From Bacteroidales bacterium (lineage in GTDB: Bacteria > Bacteroidota > Bacteroidia > Bacteroidales > UBA12077): a stretch of 64,000 bases of DNA. The stretch spans positions 4,365 through 68,364 of the forward strand of contig JAHOYT010000054.1 in the NCBI GenBank assembly GCA_019038645.1. The letters run 5' to 3'. This document shows positions 38,590 through 58,043 of the stretch, one piece after another. A program made the position numbers and the translations under genes. A model generated the notes under the pieces. That model ran no database searches, was not told the origin of the DNA, and saw only the letters and a program-made list of their open reading frames with translations. Within the stretch, counting starts at the first letter, position 1. Each line of letters begins with the position of its first letter.

Positions 38590-40743
38590 ATGGATATTCA
38601 AAAAATGAAAGACGCTCACAAGCTTTTAAAAGAGTGGAAATATGAGCTTCGCCCAATCGATAAAGGGTATAATGATCGTACATTGTATGTGAATGTTGGT
38701 TCAAATGAAATTAAGGAGAAACCTGTTCCACAACAAATGAAAGAAAAATTTATTGGTGGAAAAGGATATGGCTTAAGATTATTATGGGATGCTACTGCAC
38801 CTGAAACAAAATGGAACGACCCTGAAAATGAAATCATTATTGCTGGTGGTCCTATTTGCGGTATAACTCAATATTCTGGTACAGGTAAAGCTATTGTAGT
38901 ATCTGTATCTCCGCAAACTAATTCCATTATGGATTCAAACGTAGGTGGTCATTTTGGTCCGTTTTCTAAGTTTGCCGGATTTGATGCTGTTGAGATTCAG
39001 GGAAAATCTGAAAAAGAAGTTATAGTATTTATTGATGGAGTTAATGGTAAAGTTGAGATTTTAGAAGCTCCAGAAGAACCAATTGATAGTCATGTTTTGG
39101 GTGAAGTATTACACGAAATGTATTCTGATGATGAAAAGGACAGAAGAAATGTTTCTGTTGTTTCAGCCGGAACTGCTGCTGATCATTCATTAATTGGAAT
39201 GTTAAACTTTACTTTCTGGGATAATAAACGTAAACTGGTTCGTTTAAAACAAGCTGGTCGTGGTGGAATCGGAACTGTTTTCAGAGATAAAAAAATTAAA
39301 GCATTAGTTTGTAAAATACCTGGTGTAAAGGGTAACTTGAATAATGTTGTTGATATGGAAGCTATCATGGAACGTGGTAAGCGATTCAACAAAGAAATGC
39401 GTGAGCTTGACGATTCGCAATGCGAAATGAAGAGTAAAGGTACAGCTCACCTTACTGGAATAATGAATGATTATGATCTACTTCCGGTAAATAATTTTAA
39501 GTTTGGAAATCATCCGGATGCTCATAAAATTAACGGAGATGTTTGGAAATCATATTTTACACAAGGTGTTCCTGATGGATGTTGGATTGGTTGTAATATG
39601 TCATGTGCAAAAGGTGTTGATAATTACTTATTAAGAACCGGACCATATGCCGGAGATAAAGTAATTGTTGATGGACCTGAATATGAAACAACTTCATCGA
39701 ATGGTTCAATAATGGGTATCTTTAATCCTGATTTTACTATTGAAACTAACTTTTATTGTGATACTTATGGTATTTGTACTATTACTTTTGGTACAATCAT
39801 GGGATTTGTAATGGAATGTTACGAAGCTGGAATTTTGAACGAAGAACGTACTGGTGGATTAAAATTGAACTTCGGTAATGCAGATGATGCAATGGAGGTG
39901 TTACACCAAATGGCAGGTGGCGAAGGATTCGGTAAGATTGCAGGATTAGGTGTTCGTAAAATGAAACAACTGTTTGCTGAAAAAGGATGGGGTGATGCTC
40001 AATTCATGCAAGACATTGGAATGGAAAACAAAGGGTTGGAATATTCTCAATATGTTTCTAAAGAATCATTAGCTCAGCAGGGTGGTTATGCCATGACTAA
40101 TAAAGGTCCACAGCACGACGAAGCCTGGTTAATTTTCATGGATATGGTAAACAACCAGATTCCTACTTTCGAGAAAAAAGCAGAAGCATTGCATTATTTC
40201 CCAATGTTCCGTACCTGGTTTGGTTTAACAGGATTATGTAAATTGCCATGGAACGACGTTGAGCCTGTAAATAATGCAGAAGCTGATGAGCCAGCAAAAG
40301 TACCGGAGCATGTTGACAATTATGTAACTATTTTCAAAGCTGTTACAGGATTAGAATTCGATAAAGAAGAAATGATTACTCAATCGGAAAGAGTATATAA
40401 CTTTCAGCGTATTTTTAATATTCGTAGAGGTTATGGTGTACGGAAAGATGATGCTCAGCCATATCGTGCTGCAGGTCCTGTTACAATAGAAGAATACGAA
40501 TCTAAAGCAGAGCATTATGACAAACAGCTGAAAGAATTAATCGGTGTTGATCCTGCCGGGAAATCTGTTGAGGAAAAGAATGCGATTACAAGAAAATACA
40601 GAGAAGAACAATACGAAAAACTACTTGATGCAGTTTATGCGCGTCGTGGTTGGACATCTAATGGTGTTCCAAAAATTGAACACTTAAAGAATATAGGTAT
40701 GGATCTTCCGGAATTAATCGAAGTAATAAAAGATAAGCAATAG
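38590..40743 (+). CDS. aor: Aldehyde:ferredoxin oxidoreductase family (tungsten oxidoreductase)
   Basis: FIGGKG, DSNVGG, AGRGGIG...KKIKA, CWIGCNMSC, GPEYET, CDTYG, GLCKLPW, YARRGW...G.P. Confidence 0.92.
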   Translation: MDIQKMKDAHKLLKEWKYELRPIDKGYNDRTLYVNVGSNEIKEKPVPQQMKEKFIGGKGYGLRLLWDATAPETKWNDPENEIIIAGGPICGITQYSGTGKAIVVSVSPQTNSIMDSNVGGHFGPFSKFAGFDAVEIQGKSEKEVIVFIDGVNGKVEILEAPEEPIDSHVLGEVLHEMYSDDEKDRRNVSVVSAGTAADHSLIGMLNFTFWDNKRKLVRLKQAGRGGIGTVFRDKKIKALVCKIPGVKGNLNNVVDMEAIMERGKRFNKEMRELDDSQCEMKSKGTAHLTGIMNDYDLLPVNNFKFGNHPDAHKINGDVWKSYFTQGVPDGCWIGCNMSCAKGVDNYLLRTGPYAGDKVIVDGPEYETTSSNGSIMGIFNPDFTIETNFYCDTYGICTITFGTIMGFVMECYEAGILNEERTGGLKLNFGNADDAMEVLHQMAGGEGFGKIAGLGVRKMKQLFAEKGWGDAQFMQDIGMENKGLEYSQYVSKESLAQQGGYAMTNKGPQHDEAWLIFMDMVNNQIPTFEKKAEALHYFPMFRTWFGLTGLCKLPWNDVEPVNNAEADEPAKVPEHVDNYVTIFKAVTGLEFDKEEMITQSERVYNFQRIFNIRRGYGVRKDDAQPYRAAGPVTIEEYESKAEHYDKQLKELIGVDPAGKSVEEKNAITRKYREEQYEKLLDAVYARRGWTSNGVPKIEHLKNIGMDLPELIEVIKDKQ

Positions 40744-40762
40744 AATAAATCAGATAAATTTT

Positions 40763-40803
40763 AAAGGGTTGGTCCGGCATCTATCGGGATCAGCCCTTTT
40801 TTA
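40763..40803 (+). terminator. Terminator after aor
   Basis: AAAGGGTTGGTCC/GGATCAGCCCTTT stem plus T run. Confidence 0.8.
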
Positions 40804-41003
40804 TTAATAAGTGTATTGTTTAACTAAATTATTTGTACGGATGATTTTAAACTATTTTGTTATATCTAAGTCATATGGTTCAGTCTTTTAGATCAGTTTA
40901 CATGTTGTTTAATTAAATAGTGTAAAAAAAAGTTAAACAAAACAACAAATACCTAAAACATGGTATTTCAGAATTAAATGGTTTATTATACTTTTGACCC
41001 ATA

Positions 41004-41387
41004 ATGAGTGATAGAAAACTAAATAACAACAAGCGAATTATAACATTCCTGTTTTTTGTTTTAATAGGAGGAATTATTTTTAATTCCACTTTCTTTCTTC
41101 ATTCTCACAGAACGGCTTGCGGTAAAGTAATTGTTCACGCTCATCCGTTTAATAAAAGTGCCGAAGGCGAAGATTCTTCTTCACAACACAAGCATAATAA
41201 AATCGATTTACAGGTAATATCTTCTTTAAAGTATTTCGTAAGCATAGCTTCATCAGCAGAAATACCATACAATCCTGTTTTGGAAACAGAATTTGTTGAT
41301 GAGCAATTTGTATTTTTAATTTCAGAGAGTATTTCTTTACAAACAGACCGTGGTCCTCCTTTTGATTCTCCATTTATTATAGCTTAA
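41004..41387 (+). CDS. His-rich membrane-anchored leader protein with C-terminal RGPP (DUF2946/CruR-like architecture)
   Basis: One TM segment, HSH...HAHP...HKH, RGPP at codons 116-119; ATG 7 nt after TACTTTTG -7 box. Confidence 0.8.
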   Translation: MSDRKLNNNKRIITFLFFVLIGGIIFNSTFFLHSHRTACGKVIVHAHPFNKSAEGEDSSSQHKHNKIDLQVISSLKYFVSIASSAEIPYNPVLETEFVDEQFVFLISESISLQTDRGPPFDSPFIIA

Positions 41388-41467
41388 TATTTAAAGCATT
41401 ATTCTTCATTTAATTAATTGGGATAGTAATTCCGGTTTATCATTATTTAATACAACACAATATTACA

Positions 41468-51841: not shown

Positions 51842-52060
51842 AAGCTTAGATTTTTGGTCCGTTCCAAAATACGATTTTTTTGACAAAAAGAAAAATCTAA
51901 ATATATAAAGGCTTGTATGTGTTGTAGTTATATTGTTATAATGACTTGCTAAATTAAGAGAAATAAATATACTATTAATCTGCATTCTGTTTCAAATATT
52001 AAACGTTGTACCATTTTATATGTCATATTGTTAATTCAATTTATTCATTATCTTTGGATC

Positions 52061-52435
52061 GTGGTAAAAAATAAATATAGCATATTACCTTTCTTACTTT
52101 TAGCGTGGACTATAATTTTTGCTCACAGTGTTATCCCGCATCATCATTCAGAGAATTTTCATTCCGAATGTAGTCATCACTCCCATGAAACTCATTTTTC
52201 TGAAATGTCAGAAATTCATGATTGTAATCACGAGTGTAATGATCATACCTGCCATTTTCATGTTGATGTTTTAACGAAGGTTTCTGTTGATAATGTTTTT
52301 ATCACAAATAACATAAATACATTTTTAAATAATCTCAACTTTTCAGAATCATATGATAATGGTTTCTTTGTTGATTTTATTTCTAATCAGATACCAAAAA
52401 CCAATCATCTTCGCGGTCCTCCTGTACTTGTTTAA
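52061..52435 (+). CDS. His/Cys-rich leader protein with C-terminal RGPP (DUF6769/DUF2946-like)
   Basis: TM segment then HSVIPHHH, CSHHSH, HDCNHECNDHTCH; ends LRGPPVLV; GTG 4 nt after TATCTTTG -7 box. Confidence 0.8.
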   Translation: MVKNKYSILPFLLLAWTIIFAHSVIPHHHSENFHSECSHHSHETHFSEMSEIHDCNHECNDHTCHFHVDVLTKVSVDNVFITNNINTFLNNLNFSESYDNGFFVDFISNQIPKTNHLRGPPVLV

Positions 52436-52496: not shown

Positions 52497-53762
52497 ATGA
52501 GAAAATTCACAGTTGTTCTCATATCAATGGTTTATATAACCATGATGAGTTGTAAACATAATGATGATCATAATCATGATGATCACGGTCATTCACATGA
52601 AGAAGTAAGTGAACATACAGATCATGATAATGAACATGAGCACGAAAAAGAAACAGAAGAACACGCACACGATCATTCAGTTGAAGAGCATAATCAGGAT
52701 GAAGCAGAAGAACATGTACACAATCATACAGATGAAGAGCATAATCAGAATGAAACAGAGGAGCACGATCATAAGCACGAGTATAAAACAGCAAAAATAC
52801 AGTTACAGTCATTTCATCAAATTATTAAAACAAGTGGCGAAATAATAAATTCTCCATCAGAGGAAATTGAGGTTGTAGCAACCAACAACGGAAGAATAAG
52901 CCTTTTTGCCGGTTTGGCAAAAGGTGTTAATGTTAATACTGATCAAATTCTTTTTCAAATATCAGGAGATAATATTATAGATAACAACATTGCTTTAAGG
53001 TATAATACAGCAAAAGCAGATTTTGAAAAAGCAAAATCAGATTTTGAAAGAGCTGAAAAATTGACTAAAAACAATATTATTTCTGAAAAGGAGTACGAAC
53101 AAATTAAACTTGAATATTCAAATACAAAGTACGAATATGAATTAATTGCAAAATCATACAAAAAGGGTAGTGGCGTTGTAGCTTCTCCGTCAAAAGGTTA
53201 TGTGAAAGAGTATTTTGTTAATGAGGGACAATATGTTGAAACCGGACAAAAGCTGGCCGTTATTAATAAACAGAGTAGATTAAGATTGGTAGCTGAAGTA
53301 TCTCAAAAGTATGTTCACAATTTGCCTGAAATAGAATCAGCCACTTTTCTAATTAATAATAGTGAAAAGGCATTCGATACTGAATCATTAGATGGGAAAC
53401 TTATTTCATATGGTAAATCAGTTAATAGTAAAAGCTATTATATCCCGGTAATCTTTGAAATCAAAAATGATAAAGATTTACTGCCCGGTTCTTTTACGCA
53501 GGTTTTTTTAAAAGGTAAAGAGCTGAAGGATGTTATTGTTGTACCTGTATCGGCATTAATTGAAGAGCAAGACAATTATTTTGTTTTTGTTGAAGAAGAT
53601 CATGATAAATTTCAGAAACGACATGTTATTTTAGGTGACAGTGACGGAACAAATGTATTGGTAAAAGAAGGTTTATCTGCCGGAGAAATTATTGTAACCG
53701 AAGGAACATATTTTGTTAAACTGGCAAGTATGTCAAATGAACTTCCTGTACATAGTCATTAA
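52497..53762 (+). CDS. RND efflux periplasmic adaptor (CzcB/CusB-like) lipoprotein with His-rich N-terminus
   Basis: Lipobox MMSC, long His/Glu tract, helical hairpin, SPSKG..V.EGQYV..GQ, VPVSAL. Confidence 0.92.
   Translation: MRKFTVVLISMVYITMMSCKHNDDHNHDDHGHSHEEVSEHTDHDNEHEHEKETEEHAHDHSVEEHNQDEAEEHVHNHTDEEHNQNETEEHDHKHEYKTAKIQLQSFHQIIKTSGEIINSPSEEIEVVATNNGRISLFAGLAKGVNVNTDQILFQISGDNIIDNNIALRYNTAKADFEKAKSDFERAEKLTKNNIISEKEYEQIKLEYSNTKYEYELIAKSYKKGSGVVASPSKGYVKEYFVNEGQYVETGQKLAVINKQSRLRLVAEVSQKYVHNLPEIESATFLINNSEKAFDTESLDGKLISYGKSVNSKSYYIPVIFEIKNDKDLLPGSFTQVFLKGKELKDVIVVPVSALIEEQDNYFVFVEEDHDKFQKRHVILGDSDGTNVLVKEGLSAGEIIVTEGTYFVKLASMSNELPVHSH
52632..52784 (+). repeat. Intragenic 51-bp (17-aa) His/Glu repeat
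   Basis: GAAGAGCATAATCAG at 52683 and 52734; a degenerate unit precedes them. Confidence 0.7.
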
Positions 53763-53779
53763 CATTAAACCTGATAATT

Positions 53780-56700
53780 ATGCTAAATAAAATTATAAAA
53801 TTTTCGCTGGAAAACAGGTTGCTGGTGGTTTTTGGTTCGGTTTTACTGCTTCTGTCCGGAGGATATGTGACATCCAGAATGGAAGTTGATATTTTCCCTG
53901 AATTAACTGCTCCTACAGTAGTTGTTATGACCGAAGCGCATGGTATGGCTCCTGAAGAAGTTGAAAAACTTGTAACTTTTCCAATAGAAACATCAGTTAA
54001 CGGAGCAACGGATATTCGTCGCGTTCGATCTTCATCATCAATGGGCTTTTCCATTGTTTGGGTTGAGTTTGACTGGGGGACAGATATATATAATGCCCGA
54101 CAAACGGTAACTGAAAGGCTTGTGGCTGTTAAGGATCAGTTACCAACACAGGCCGGTGATCCTTTTATTGCACCTCAATCATCTTTGCTGGGAGAAATAA
54201 TGCTGGTTGCCATTACTTCTGATACAAAGTCGCCGATGGAATTACGCACTATCGCTGAATGGAATCTGCGTCCCAGGTTACTTTCAATTGGTGGTGTAGC
54301 TCAGGTTTCAACAATTGGAGGGGAATTTAAGGAATATCAAATATTGGTAAATCCTGACTTAATGAAATATTACAACGTTTCGTTTAGTGAGATTATTGAA
54401 AACAGCCAGTTAATGAACGAAAACGCTACCGGTGGATTTATTGAGCAACATGGTAATCAGTATATGGTTCGGGGAATTATCCGAACAAATAATACAGATG
54501 AGCTTGGGAATGTCGTAATTAAAATGGCTGAAAATTATCCCGTTAAAATCTCTGATGTTGCAAAAGTAAAAATTGGAAGCTCTCCTAAAATTGGTGACGC
54601 ATCGTATCGTGGCGAAAAAGCTGTTATTTTATCAATAACCAAACAGCCTAATGTAAATACAATTGAACTTACAAAAAGTGTAAATGAATCATTGGTTGAT
54701 ATACAGAAAAACATTGGAAATGAAATTCATTTTCATACAGATATCTATAACCAGTCTGAATTCATCAACACATCAATTAACAATGTAAAAAAGGCGTTAG
54801 TTGAAGGGTCTTTTTTTGTGATCATTATTCTTTTCTTATTCCTGATGAATTACAGAACAACTCTGATTTCACTTCTGGCAATTCCGCTTTCGTTATTAGT
54901 TACAATTCTTGTATTAAAAGCGTTGGGATTAACAATTAATACAATGAGTCTGGGAGGGATGGCTATTGCAATCGGCTCTCTTGTTGATGATGCAATTATT
55001 GACGTTGAGAATGTTTACAAACGTTTGAAACAAAACGTAGGATTTGAAACAACACACAGGGAAAAGCCATTAAAAGTTATTTTCGATGCTTCAACTGAAA
55101 TAAGACCTTCAATCATGAATGCTACTATTATTATAATTGTTGCATTTGTACCATTATTCTTTTTAGGTGGAATGGAAGGCCGGATGTTAAAACCTCTGGG
55201 TATATCATATATAGTTGCATTGTTTGCATCACTTGTTGTGGCAATTACTATTACCCCGGTTTTATGTAGTTATTTACTCACTAACGAAAAACGTTTAAAA
55301 AAGCATAAAAAAGGAAGTTGGTTAGAGAGGAAACTGAACAGGTTATATTTTGCCAGCCTAAAATGGGTTTTAAATAAGAAAACTGTCGTTCTAAGTTCCG
55401 CCTTTGCTCTGTTGATATTAGCAGTTGTTGTATTTACCGGATTCGGGAGTAATTTTTTACCACCTTTTAACGAAGGTTCGCTCACGATAAATTTGAATTC
55501 TTTACCAGGGATTTCTCTGGAAGAATCATACAAACTTGGGAAAAAGGCCGATGATATTTTACTTGATATTCCAGAAATAAAATCAGTGGCACGAAGAACA
55601 GGACGTTCAGAATTGGCTGAGCATTCATTTGGTGTAAACGTATCTGAAATAGATGCTCCATTTGAATTAATAGACAGATCCAGAGCTGAGTTTTTGGCTG
55701 ATGTAAGATCACAGCTTAAAACCATAAAAGGAGCAACGGTGGAAGTCGGACAGCCTGTCACACACCGCATGGATCATATGTTATCAGGAACAAAGGCTAA
55801 CATTGCCATTAAATTATTTGGTAACGAATTAAATGAAATGTTCCAGGTGGCTAATGTTATAAAAAGCGAAATTCAGGATATTGAAGGTATAGGCGATTTA
55901 TTTGTTGAACAGCAAATCGAAATTCCTCAGTTAAAGATAAAACCAAAACGTGATATGCTTGCTAAATACGGAATCCCGTTAAATAAATTTATGGAATTTG
56001 TCGATTATGCTTTTGCCGGTGAAAAAGTATCTGATGTTTTTGAGGATGAAAAATCATTTGATCTGGTTCTTCGTTTTGATGAGGAGCATAGAAATTCTAT
56101 TGAGACAATTCAGGAGGCAATGATTGATACACATGATGGCAAAAAAATACCGATTTATTATGTGGCTGATATTACATCATCTTCCGGCCCAAATACTATA
56201 AGTAGAGAAAATGTTCAGCGTAAAATTGTTGTTTCGGTAAATGTTGCTGATCGTGATGTAGGCAGTGTTGTAAAAGATATTATTGAAAGGGTTAATGATC
56301 ACGTTATTTTGCCCGAAGGTTACCGGGTTGAATACGGAGGACAATTTGAAAGTGCTGCCAGTGCTTCAAGAACTTTAACCATAACTTCAATAATTGCAAT
56401 TTTGGTAATATTCCTGATTCTTTTTCAGGAGTTTAAAAGTACAAAATTGGCATGGATTATTTTATTAAACCTTCCGTTAGCAATGATCGGAGGAGTTATT
56501 GCAATCAGGTTAACATCCGGAGTTGTAAGTATTCCTGTTATAATTGGATTTATTACATTATTTGGAATAGCAACGCGTAATGGGATTTTGCTTGTTTCAA
56601 GATACAGAAATATGGCAGAAAAAGGAATAGAGGTATATGATAGAGTTATAAGGGGTTCGCTGGACAGGTTAAATCCTATTCTAATGACAGCTCTTACGGC

Positions 56701-56875
56701 GGCTCTTGCTTTAATTCCATTAGCAATTGCAGGTGATAAGCCTGGTAACGAAATCCAAAGTCCAATGGCGGTTGTTATTTTAGGCGGATTGCTGAGTTCT
56801 ACATTTTTAAACATTTATATTGTTCCGGTAATTTATTTGATAATGCATAATAAGGAGGTGAAAGATGAAAAGTAG
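53780..56875 (+). CDS. Heavy-metal efflux RND permease (CzcA/CusA family)
   Basis: DIFPEL, APEEVE..VT.PIE, GSLVDDAIIDVEN, FLPPFNEG, RLNPILMTA. Confidence 0.95.
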   Translation: MLNKIIKFSLENRLLVVFGSVLLLLSGGYVTSRMEVDIFPELTAPTVVVMTEAHGMAPEEVEKLVTFPIETSVNGATDIRRVRSSSSMGFSIVWVEFDWGTDIYNARQTVTERLVAVKDQLPTQAGDPFIAPQSSLLGEIMLVAITSDTKSPMELRTIAEWNLRPRLLSIGGVAQVSTIGGEFKEYQILVNPDLMKYYNVSFSEIIENSQLMNENATGGFIEQHGNQYMVRGIIRTNNTDELGNVVIKMAENYPVKISDVAKVKIGSSPKIGDASYRGEKAVILSITKQPNVNTIELTKSVNESLVDIQKNIGNEIHFHTDIYNQSEFINTSINNVKKALVEGSFFVIIILFLFLMNYRTTLISLLAIPLSLLVTILVLKALGLTINTMSLGGMAIAIGSLVDDAIIDVENVYKRLKQNVGFETTHREKPLKVIFDASTEIRPSIMNATIIIIVAFVPLFFLGGMEGRMLKPLGISYIVALFASLVVAITITPVLCSYLLTNEKRLKKHKKGSWLERKLNRLYFASLKWVLNKKTVVLSSAFALLILAVVVFTGFGSNFLPPFNEGSLTINLNSLPGISLEESYKLGKKADDILLDIPEIKSVARRTGRSELAEHSFGVNVSEIDAPFELIDRSRAEFLADVRSQLKTIKGATVEVGQPVTHRMDHMLSGTKANIAIKLFGNELNEMFQVANVIKSEIQDIEGIGDLFVEQQIEIPQLKIKPKRDMLAKYGIPLNKFMEFVDYAFAGEKVSDVFEDEKSFDLVLRFDEEHRNSIETIQEAMIDTHDGKKIPIYYVADITSSSGPNTISRENVQRKIVVSVNVADRDVGSVVKDIIERVNDHVILPEGYRVEYGGQFESAASASRTLTITSIIAILVIFLILFQEFKSTKLAWIILLNLPLAMIGGVIAIRLTSGVVSIPVIIGFITLFGIATRNGILLVSRYRNMAEKGIEVYDRVIRGSLDRLNPILMTALTAALALIPLAIAGDKPGNEIQSPMAVVILGGLLSSTFLNIYIVPVIYLIMHNKEVKDEK

Positions 56876-58043
56876 AAGAAATCTGATAATTTCGATATTG
56901 TTTTTTGTTTCGATAAATGCTTACTCACAGTCATTTAATGAAATTTTGGAAACAATTGAGCAGAATAATAAAGAGCTGCAGGCCGGAAATAAATTCCTGG
57001 AAAGTAAAATCTATGAGCATAAACAAAACAATTTACCGGGAGGCCCGTCATTATCATACGGATATTTTCCTGATAATTCTTCGGTTTCAGGAACAAAGGA
57101 AGTTTTTGAGGTAAGTCAGTCATTTCAGATGCCATGTTTTTACAGAAATCAATCGGCGTATTCAAAGTTAATGATTGGAACAGAAGAATTAAATCATTTG
57201 GTATTAAGGCAAAACATATTGAGCGAAGCAAAAAGCCTTTTAACAGAATATGTTTATCTCTTAAAACAGATATCAATTCTCAGCATAAGATTAAAGTTTG
57301 CTGAAGATATTTATAACGCTTATCTGGTTCGGGGTGAATTAGGAGATGTAAATGCTCTGGAAATAAATAAAGCAAAGTTGCATTTACTTCAGGTTCAGAA
57401 ACAAGAGAAAGATTTACAAACTCAATTTTTGGCAATAACAGAAAAACTCATGAATCTAAATGGTGGAGATGATTTAAGCTTAGGAGTAATAAATTATCCT
57501 TTAGAAAATCTGACAGATTTGGACACATTGTTATTTGAAAGACTGGAGTACGATCCGGAATTATTGTATAATCAAAAGGCATTTGAAGCATCAGAAAAGA
57601 GAATAAAAGTTGCTAAAAACCTGCAGTTACCTGAATTTAGTCTGGGTTATGGAAGTGAGACAGTTGCAAATGAGAAATTCAAAGGATTTTTAGTTGGTGT
57701 TTCAGTTCCTTTATGGGGAAGCAAAAACTCAATTCAGCAGGCAAAAGCAGAATCAGATTTTTATGACGTAAATAATAATTTTTTAAGAGAGAAAAGAATA
57801 TCTGAAACAAAAATTCAATTTGAAAAAGTACATTCACTCAAAGAAAACCTGGAAAGTTATGAAACAGTTTTAAGTTCTGTAAATAATGAAGATCTTCTTA
57901 ATAAGTCGTTAGAATTAGGGGAAATATCAGTAATTGAATTTTTTACTGAGATGTTTTATTTCTATGAAATTTATGATGATTATTTATTACTGGAGAAAGA
58001 TTACTATCAGGCTTTAACGGAATTGTATAAATACAAACTATAA
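56865..58043 (+). CDS. TolC/CzcC-family outer-membrane efflux protein
   Basis: Signal peptide, helical repeats, GVSVPLW, GEIS; overlaps the RND gene. Confidence 0.88.
   Translation: MKSRRNLIISILFFVSINAYSQSFNEILETIEQNNKELQAGNKFLESKIYEHKQNNLPGGPSLSYGYFPDNSSVSGTKEVFEVSQSFQMPCFYRNQSAYSKLMIGTEELNHLVLRQNILSEAKSLLTEYVYLLKQISILSIRLKFAEDIYNAYLVRGELGDVNALEINKAKLHLLQVQKQEKDLQTQFLAITEKLMNLNGGDDLSLGVINYPLENLTDLDTLLFERLEYDPELLYNQKAFEASEKRIKVAKNLQLPEFSLGYGSETVANEKFKGFLVGVSVPLWGSKNSIQQAKAESDFYDVNNNFLREKRISETKIQFEKVHSLKENLESYETVLSSVNNEDLLNKSLELGEISVIEFFTEMFYFYEIYDDYLLLEKDYYQALTELYKYKL

Follow-up and report, generated by a model that had tools for sequence, protein, structure and literature searches.

A six-histidine leader ending in R-x-P-P as a candidate ribosome-arrest metal sensor before a TonB-dependent receptor in Bacteroidales

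In the 64,000-nt window analyzed here (contig JAHOYT010000054.1 of the Bacteroidales assembly GCA_019038645.1, positions 4,365 to 68,364), a small histidine-rich reading frame stands directly before a gene for a TonB-dependent receptor, which raises the question whether the small frame controls the receptor and, if so, in response to which signal. A first-pass annotation had proposed a metal-sensing leader that arrests its own ribosome, and this proposal gains comparative support from a conserved R-x-P-P ending, invariant histidines, fixed spacing, linkage to the receptor and a scarcity of promoters in the intervening gap. An arrest leader similar to CruR and CutF appears to be the best reading of the locus, and the frame would then be a real, well-conserved candidate arrest sensor. 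As a whole, it is reasonably probable that the leader is a gene fixed before a CxxC receptor and functions as a nascent-chain metal sensor with a periplasmic six-histidine site and CruR-like Rho attenuation. The parts of this reading differ in strength: a ribosome stall at RGPP is very probable in view of the known arrest peptides, control of the receptor by the leader highly likely, and metal sensing likely; the periplasm is slightly favored as the sensing compartment, and the chances of a Rho step appear evenly balanced.

The features described at the outset were recovered (Table 1). The clusters HSH, HAHP and HKH correspond to H33-S-H35, H45-A-H47-P48 and H62-K-H64, the RGPP motif indeed precedes the stop codon by eight residues, and the single transmembrane segment has a best 19-residue Kyte–Doolittle mean of 2.2, compared to 1.04 for the second-best segment. 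The description as near-leaderless agrees with the TAnnTTTG box immediately 5′ of the start codon, which we take to be the Bacteroidota −7 consensus and which suggests a near-leaderless mRNA. For 32 of 65 leaders, but for only 4 of 331 control genes, such a box ends at most 12 nt from the start, and a sigma-70 promoter and terminator scan was uninformative (8 found, 8.5 expected). RGPP occurs three times in the 7,674 ORFs of the source genome, each time at most 20 residues from the end of a small His-rich ORF that heads metal-transport genes, namely the leader itself (41004–41387), a paralog on contig C54 and a different leader at 52028–52435 of the window; the placement of RGPP at the end of such ORFs exceeds chance. 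An AlphaFold2 model of the leader (mean pLDDT 79.7, pTM 0.43) predicts a helix at residues 2–30, a two-strand hairpin (32–36 and 42–46) that carries the first four histidines, and a helix at 66–84, and Foldseek retrieved no PDB match to it at E ≤ 0.001. The only cysteine, C39, is kept in 4% of the wide family. The upstream neighbor in most loci of the same genus, here at 38590–40743, is a gene for aldehyde:ferredoxin oxidoreductase (Pfam), which is probably unrelated to the leader and is set apart by a terminator-like hairpin that would insulate the leader operon; this hairpin was not among the matches of a simple terminator scan.

Table 1. Features of the leader–receptor locus (positions in the window).
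Feature	Position	Strand	Basis or remark
Intrinsic-terminator-like hairpin and T run closing the upstream gene	40763..40805	+	RNAfold −20.2 kcal/mol on 40761–40805
Operator-like palindrome AATACC-N8-GGTATT, 40 nt 5′ of the −7 box	40948..40967	.	Common to feoAB promoters
TAnnTTTG −7 promoter box, 7 nt 5′ of the leader ATG	40989..40996	+	
Leader ORF, unnamed Bacteroidota six-His R-x-P-P family	41004..41387	+	127 aa
N-terminal transmembrane/signal-anchor segment, approximately residues 13–31, after basic N-terminus	41040..41096	+	
His hairpin, H33-x-H35 and H45-A-H47-P48, two predicted beta strands	41100..41147	+	AlphaFold2
Third His pair, H62-x-H64, and conserved acidic D68	41187..41207	+	
RGPP (R116-G-P-P119), predicted ribosome-arrest motif, followed by 8 residues and stop	41349..41360	+	
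U-rich, G-poor tract of weak structure across the stop codon, candidate Rho-loading region	41361..41415	+	
Weak 9-bp hairpin in the gap, clear of the receptor start, possible pause hairpin	41416..41437	+	Predicted fold
TonB-dependent receptor, 789 aa	41468..43837	+	Pfam; starts 80 nt after leader stop

A search with the leader sequence alone found 58 relatives, and a profile built from 51 of them retrieved 1,119 clusters (50% identity) at E ≤ 0.001. Members of the family were detected in 78 of the 201 Bacteroidales genomes and in 12 of 301 genomes of a phylum-wide scan, a figure that understates its range because only 14 candidates per genome were scored. Within an alignment of 149 of the best 150 representatives (one fragment was omitted), H33, H35, H45, H47, P48, H62, H64 and P118 are invariant in all 149 sequences at a mean column identity of 18%. 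Of the 150 representatives, 131 carry R[AGS]PP and most of the remainder KAPP, RPPP or similar; the R-x-P-P ending is thus conserved, and a lack of conservation of RGPP, which had been named in advance as speaking against arrest, did not appear. In 112 of 143 representatives and 47 of 51 close homologs (seven skipped by the pattern in each set) the last histidine stands 51 residues before the arginine, and in 87 of 98 members of a second subfamily (22 skipped) this distance is 55 residues; the loop preceding the last His pair varies between 8 and 16 residues, and the distance from the first histidine to the arginine is about 81–83 residues in all sets. Four residues past the last histidine, 126 of 148 sequences have E or D. 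Neither Pfam nor NCBIfam offers a family for the leader. Membership in DUF2946 (PF11162) was rejected, as the leader has no Pfam match at E ≤ 1 and no CxxC, and DUF2946 was absent among the best 25 families listed for the 149 family members. An Atlas search retrieved unnamed Bacteroidota clusters, the nearest named one being DUF6769 (PF20558; score 0.94, 122/256 features), like the leader a small His-rich Bacteroidota protein; assignment to it was likewise rejected, there being no Pfam match, and family members are absent among the DUF6769 hits listed (best 25 of 58 families). The leader thus belongs to a large Bacteroidota family without a Pfam model.

The receptor shows the CQNC plug motif that had been reported for it, as C162-Q-N-C165 (41951–41962) within the Pfam Plug match (residues 124–229). 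C162, C165, H348, H549 and M701 are kept in all 69 full-length receptor relatives aligned and H358 in 99% of them, a soft-ligand set that would suit a metal cargo. No close solved relative of the receptor was found, the best match (E 1.4e-17) covering the N-terminal part only. For the linkage analysis the 80 best loci were fetched by the receptor alone, and an upstream leader was sought with a profile cut at residue 70; since this profile is blind to the leader tail, the test of tail and linkage is non-circular. A leader lies directly 5′ of the receptor in 64 of the 72 loci with at least 700 nt upstream, and of the 65 leaders at receptor-chosen loci 62 end in [RK]xPP and three in RAPT. The gaps have a median length of 115 nt and extend up to 636 nt, and only four of 65 contain a −7 box, so that the objection that the receptor might have its own promoter is not borne out. 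The other neighbors of the pair gave no clue to a metal in the 80 loci, the neighborhood being variable. A census of downstream genes covered 70 of 96 order-wide leader matches (the 30 best and 40 picked by hand): 49 leaders precede a receptor with CxxC and five more a receptor missed by the pattern (three recognized by Pfam, two by eye), and the rest precede an RND efflux component (nine), a porin-like gene (one), unknown genes (four) or a contig end (two).

Among characterized systems, the closest counterpart is CruR (Bp2923, DUF2946/PF11162) of Bordetella pertussis, the leader of cruR-bfrG(crtA)-bp2921 (PMC9426467), which arrests in vitro at RAPP with two proline codons in the P and A sites (PMC12992588). 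In both cases a small first gene with an N-terminal export signal precedes a TonB-dependent transporter at the end of a long gap, and a metal-ligand motif is held at a conserved distance from a C-terminal R-x-P-P. Unlike CruR, however, the leader is devoid of CxxC and instead has six histidines and an acidic residue on a predicted beta hairpin, its spacing is 51 rather than 45 residues, its host belongs to the Bacteroidota, its locus has only a weak C>G bubble, and its receptor carries the CQNC plug motif, whereas CrtA orthologs have no conserved Cys or Met. With ApdA, ApdP and SecM the leader shares the arrest core (RAPP/RGPP/RAGP) and the N-terminal localization signal, but those peptides precede sec genes and contain no metal motif. 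RAPP/RGPP upstream ORFs before TonB-dependent receptors were described as a class by Fujiwara et al. (EMBO J 2025; PMC12992588), where RGPP gave the strongest, EF-P-resistant arrest in many contexts. Such arrest peptides are small secretory or membrane proteins with R-[AG]-P-P close to the C-terminus, a description that applies to the leader, and its family belongs to this class: Bacteroides thetaiotaomicron BT_RS02460 and BT_RS02470, which show the His pattern of the six-His family, and Parabacteroides distasonis BDI_RS07210 are rows of the source table, the two former listed as RAPP upstream ORFs before TonB receptors. In the available part of that paper the class is handled in bulk, the six-His family is not defined and only Streptomyces proteins and CruR were tested.

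The second precedent is CutF of Rhodobacter capsulatus with the CutF-like proteins (bioRxiv 10.1101/2022.11.11.516240, PMC9973294; 10.1101/2025.02.05.636593), where, as proposed for the leader, an exported nascent chain serves as metal sensor for the next gene through a proline-rich arrest motif. CutF differs from the leader in having CxxxC and in activating cutO through the melting of a stem-loop that masks the ribosome-binding site. The CutF-like survey selected proteins of <150 aa with an N-terminal export signal, PP in the last 15 residues and a same-strand gene within ≤1,000 nt; the leader, with 127 aa, a hydrophobic segment, PP eight residues from the end and a gap of 80 nt, has all of these features, and the protein list of the survey may contain members of the leader family. 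Its His-only clusters 14 and 17 precede HupE/UreJ genes rather than CxxC receptors. The principle, a bulk list of RAPP upstream ORFs that includes unnamed family members, and His-only CutF-like clusters are thus already published. A description of the six-His family as such was not found in a search confined largely to freely available papers, and neither PMC12119571 nor the available part of the Price et al. preprint contained information on the mechanism.

By analogy with ApdA, ApdP and CruR, the ribosome would stall at RGPP with P118 in the P site. H62 and H64 are 54–56 residues from this proline and H33–H47 71–85 residues; about 50 extended residues suffice to span SecYEG up to its periplasmic end, and at about 70 residues a periplasmic domain was folded (Sandhu preprint). 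The membrane-anchored chain would thereby present its six histidines on the periplasmic face of the Sec channel. In the simplest model, based on this geometry and the conserved N-terminal anchor, the hairpin would reside in the periplasm and the last His pair at the channel mouth, just outside the channel because of its distance of 54–56 residues from the arrest point. Without metal, if CruR is a valid guide, the stalled ribosome would cover the U-rich tract, Rho could not load and the receptor would be made. A divalent metal would clamp the hairpin histidines to the last pair, tug the chain and free the stall, whereupon Rho would terminate transcription within the 80-nt gap.

Periplasmic sensing would fit both the chain geometry and CutF, the precedent for this compartment, whose metal response is reportedly lost upon deletion or Tat swap of the N-terminal signal. 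CruR provides a counter-example, as copper is sensed in the cytoplasm and the signal peptide is not involved in release. Following CruR, the His site of the leader could fold round the metal outside the exit tunnel, the N-terminal segment serving only to dispose of the protein, and the CxxC–RAPP spacing of 45 residues in CruR is near the 51 of the leader. We give this alternative a small chance, as the first four histidines, at 71–85 residues from the arrest point, lie beyond the need of a cytoplasmic fold, and the N-terminus is strongly conserved: a hydrophobic segment is present in 139 of 143 representatives and net positive charge ahead of it in 133 of 143, and all 51 close homologs have both.

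A layer of control overlooked by the first-pass annotation is the palindrome in the leader promoter. With a matrix derived from 18 sites of the receptor-chosen set, scores of at least 16 were obtained in 19 of 22 close CxxC-receptor loci outside the training set (one of which, L020, duplicates a training locus), but in none of five ZnuA-type loci. By pattern, the element was found at 19 of 65 receptor-chosen leaders and eight of 49 loci of the order-wide census, and it is therefore lineage-restricted. The source genome contains four matches, a number not above controls (three in reversed, zero to five in shuffled sequence), but all four are exactly 40 nt before a −7 box, one of them that of feoAB, so that in this genome the position of the palindrome and not its raw count is significant. 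In eight other genomes it precedes feoAB as well, 39–40 nt from the −7 box. Since the leader and feoAB promoters have the palindrome in common, an iron-linked transcription layer is likely in the leader's lineage, and AATACC-N8-GGTATT is a candidate for an undescribed iron-regulon operator. B. fragilis feoAB is Fur-regulated (PMC6460266). Regulator genes in the source genome comprise two of the Fur family and a hemerythrin–LuxR pair; CsoR/RcnR and DtxR were rejected as owners of the palindrome, as neither was matched there. In its layout the palindrome is similar to a NarL/LuxR 7-2-7 site, and this would suggest a regulator of the CdhR type. Such a hemerythrin–LuxR pair is encoded in the source genome and in nine genomes with operator-positive census loci, but its presence in 120 of 201 genomes of the order makes it non-discriminating. 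Palindromes 39–40 nt before a −7 box were also seen at C63:2534, C45:7361 and C40:34446 of the source genome and at loci L139–L152 and L160, where the promoters belong to feoAB, hemerythrin genes and a porin-like gene. At C40:34475–34493 in the source genome, L144 and L045, a second palindrome, ATTTAGAATnATTCT-like, is interposed between this element and the −7 box; it resembles a Riemerella Fur-box prediction. Three receptors without a leader (L093, L096, L118) retain the palindrome at their own promoter, which suggests that loss of the leader need not entail loss of the transcription layer.

An unlikely alternative in this context is that the leader itself senses iron or heme and doubles the iron control of its promoter. 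The feoAB-type palindrome 40 nt upstream of the −7 box would agree with this, as would paralogs that head flavodoxin–DUF2023 and HmuY loci, whose B. thetaiotaomicron counterparts rise more than 100-fold without iron, and six histidines with one carboxylate could hold Fe(II). However, ZnuA-type paralogs are mostly without the palindrome (0 of 5, plus L022), and expression data speak against iron. We read BT_RS02470 as BT0503 from the row "BT_RS02470-2505, BT0503-09" (PMC10434189). In B. thetaiotaomicron with 150 µM dipyridyl this leader is up 2.39-fold and its receptor BT0504 2.43-fold, with hmu genes up >100-fold; no attenuation between leader and receptor is thus visible without iron, whereas a leader released by iron should raise the receptor above itself. 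The second cassette, BT_RS02460-65, is not among the up-regulated rows listed in the available part of the table (PMC10434189). Iron is therefore disfavored as ligand, a conclusion qualified by the possibility of translational control.

For a leader that senses another metal, zinc is the best guess and has the best support from gene neighborhoods, because the family heads both ZnuA-type import and CzcCBA-type export systems. Six-histidine sites are, however, more usual for octahedral Ni, Co, Mn or Fe(II). Our ranking places zinc first, as a tentative choice, followed by Ni or Co as possible, Fe(II) as rather doubtful, and Mn or another metal as least likely. Across the order, NiFe hydrogenase large subunits (from a hand-sorted list) are weakly associated with the leader, being encoded in 30 of 78 genomes that have one and in 29 of 123 that do not (odds ratio 2.0; p 0.03, with no correction for kinship). 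No such subunit was found in the source genome (96.9% complete) apart from one short match of 404 aa, nor was NikR, which weakens the case for nickel in this organism; the complete genome G008, which has five leaders, likewise yielded no NiFe hydrogenase large subunit.

Downstream of the arrest point, the claimed pyrimidine-rich, G-poor stretch turned out to be G-poor and U-rich (31 T, 7 C and 4 G in the 60 nt of 41361–41420), but not C-rich. The 78-nt windows at the source locus have at most a weak C>G excess, which is partly an amino-acid effect because it is absent at fourfold-degenerate sites before the arginine. Compared to 157 control gaps, the first 30 nt past the leader stop are richer in pyrimidine (0.60 vs. 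0.48) and poorer in G (0.115 vs. 0.164), terminator-like hairpins are present in one of 65 leader gaps vs. 17 of 157 control gaps, and Rho is encoded in the source genome. Rho attenuation is favored, if at nearly even balance, because of this gap composition, the few hairpins and −7 boxes, the rho gene, and the failure of folding to predict a general opening of a start hairpin. Coupling in the manner of CutF or SecM, where the stalled ribosome would melt a hairpin over the receptor start without Rho, appears quite unlikely for the leader: CutF works so, either polarity would be possible, which would suit the efflux operons described below, and the predicted folds of gap regions are somewhat more stable than those of shuffles (mean z −1.5, 15 of 47 below −2, with no control set; z 0.30, no better than shuffles, at the source locus), but masking the ribosome footprint barely alters the predicted start accessibility (0.52 to 0.54 in 53 sequences with gaps up to 220 nt only), and the gaps are long and variable. 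The increase exceeds 0.1 in eight of the 53 sequences, and at the source locus predicted accessibility rises from 0.65 to 0.75; a start-site hairpin as in CutF is thus not generally predicted in the leader family.

A second hydrophobic segment is present in 105 of 143 distant members and in none of 51 close homologs, and for the close subfamily the idea that a second transmembrane helix universally generates the force was therefore rejected. That the leader monitors its own export or insertion like ApdP or MifM, its histidines serving later as a small periplasmic metal chaperone, is highly improbable: RAPP-type peptides were first found as Sec monitors, and the second segment of most distant members starts 41–50 residues from the arrest point, where helix insertion pulls, but this segment is missing from the leader's own subfamily, the fixed His-to-R distance ties the histidines to the arrest, and sec or yidC is directly downstream in none of the 70 census loci, where receptors, porins, efflux parts and unknown secreted proteins are encoded instead.

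If the arrest-leader reading is true, nascent-chain sensing of metals, for which the demonstrated cases (CruR, CutF) are limited to copper and Cys motifs, would be extended by a His-only version to further metals and to the Bacteroidota, a phylum whose regulatory mechanisms are described as scarcely known in one iron-stimulon paper. Identification of the releasing metal would, in addition, indicate the cargo of the uncharacterized CxxC receptor family. The idea is directly testable, because tractable gut species encode family members (B. thetaiotaomicron with BT_RS02460 and BT_RS02470, P. distasonis, B. finegoldii). A more far-reaching version is possible, but we advance it tentatively: a cysteine-free, phylum-wide sensor in which six histidines (with a carboxylate) at the Sec mouth would report Zn, Ni or Co to a ribosome 54 residues away, portable before importers and exporters, and which in this lineage, under an undescribed feoAB-type operator, would allow receptor synthesis only at low iron and in the absence of a second metal.

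The paralogs in close relatives head porin–ZnuA–ABC-3 operons, HmuY–receptor pairs and DUF6686–flavodoxin–DUF2023 genes. A simple model in which metal turns the downstream genes off does not account for the efflux operons, nine of which are headed by the same family in the 70 census loci. These efflux leaders are scattered in a poorly supported tree without forming a single supported clade, and their downstream composition is similar. The RGPP paralog of the source genome (L128, C54:18062–18517) heads genes for a 430-aa porin-like protein, a ZnuA-family binding protein and two ABC-3 permeases, with no ATPase gene directly in the row and no feoAB-type palindrome. The other RGPP-ending small ORF of the window (52028–52435, forward strand) is His/Cys-rich and of a different family; it aligns with the six-His family only at the RGPP tail (probability 2.5%) and has a weak likeness to DUF6769 (E 0.032). 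It lies 61 nt before a His-rich CzcB–CzcA–TolC efflux operon (52497–58043), and a −7 box at 52049–52056 suggests a start near 52070. At L181, L182 and L185 the gene that follows the leader encodes an unnamed secreted protein of approximately 200 aa without a Pfam match. An island in another genome (L124, G008:C1:4370000–4389999) contains three family leaders, each with a palindrome, and a fourth, unrelated His-rich RAPP ORF (L124:16555–16869) before another receptor, together with flavodoxin, DUF2023, hemerythrin and LuxR genes.
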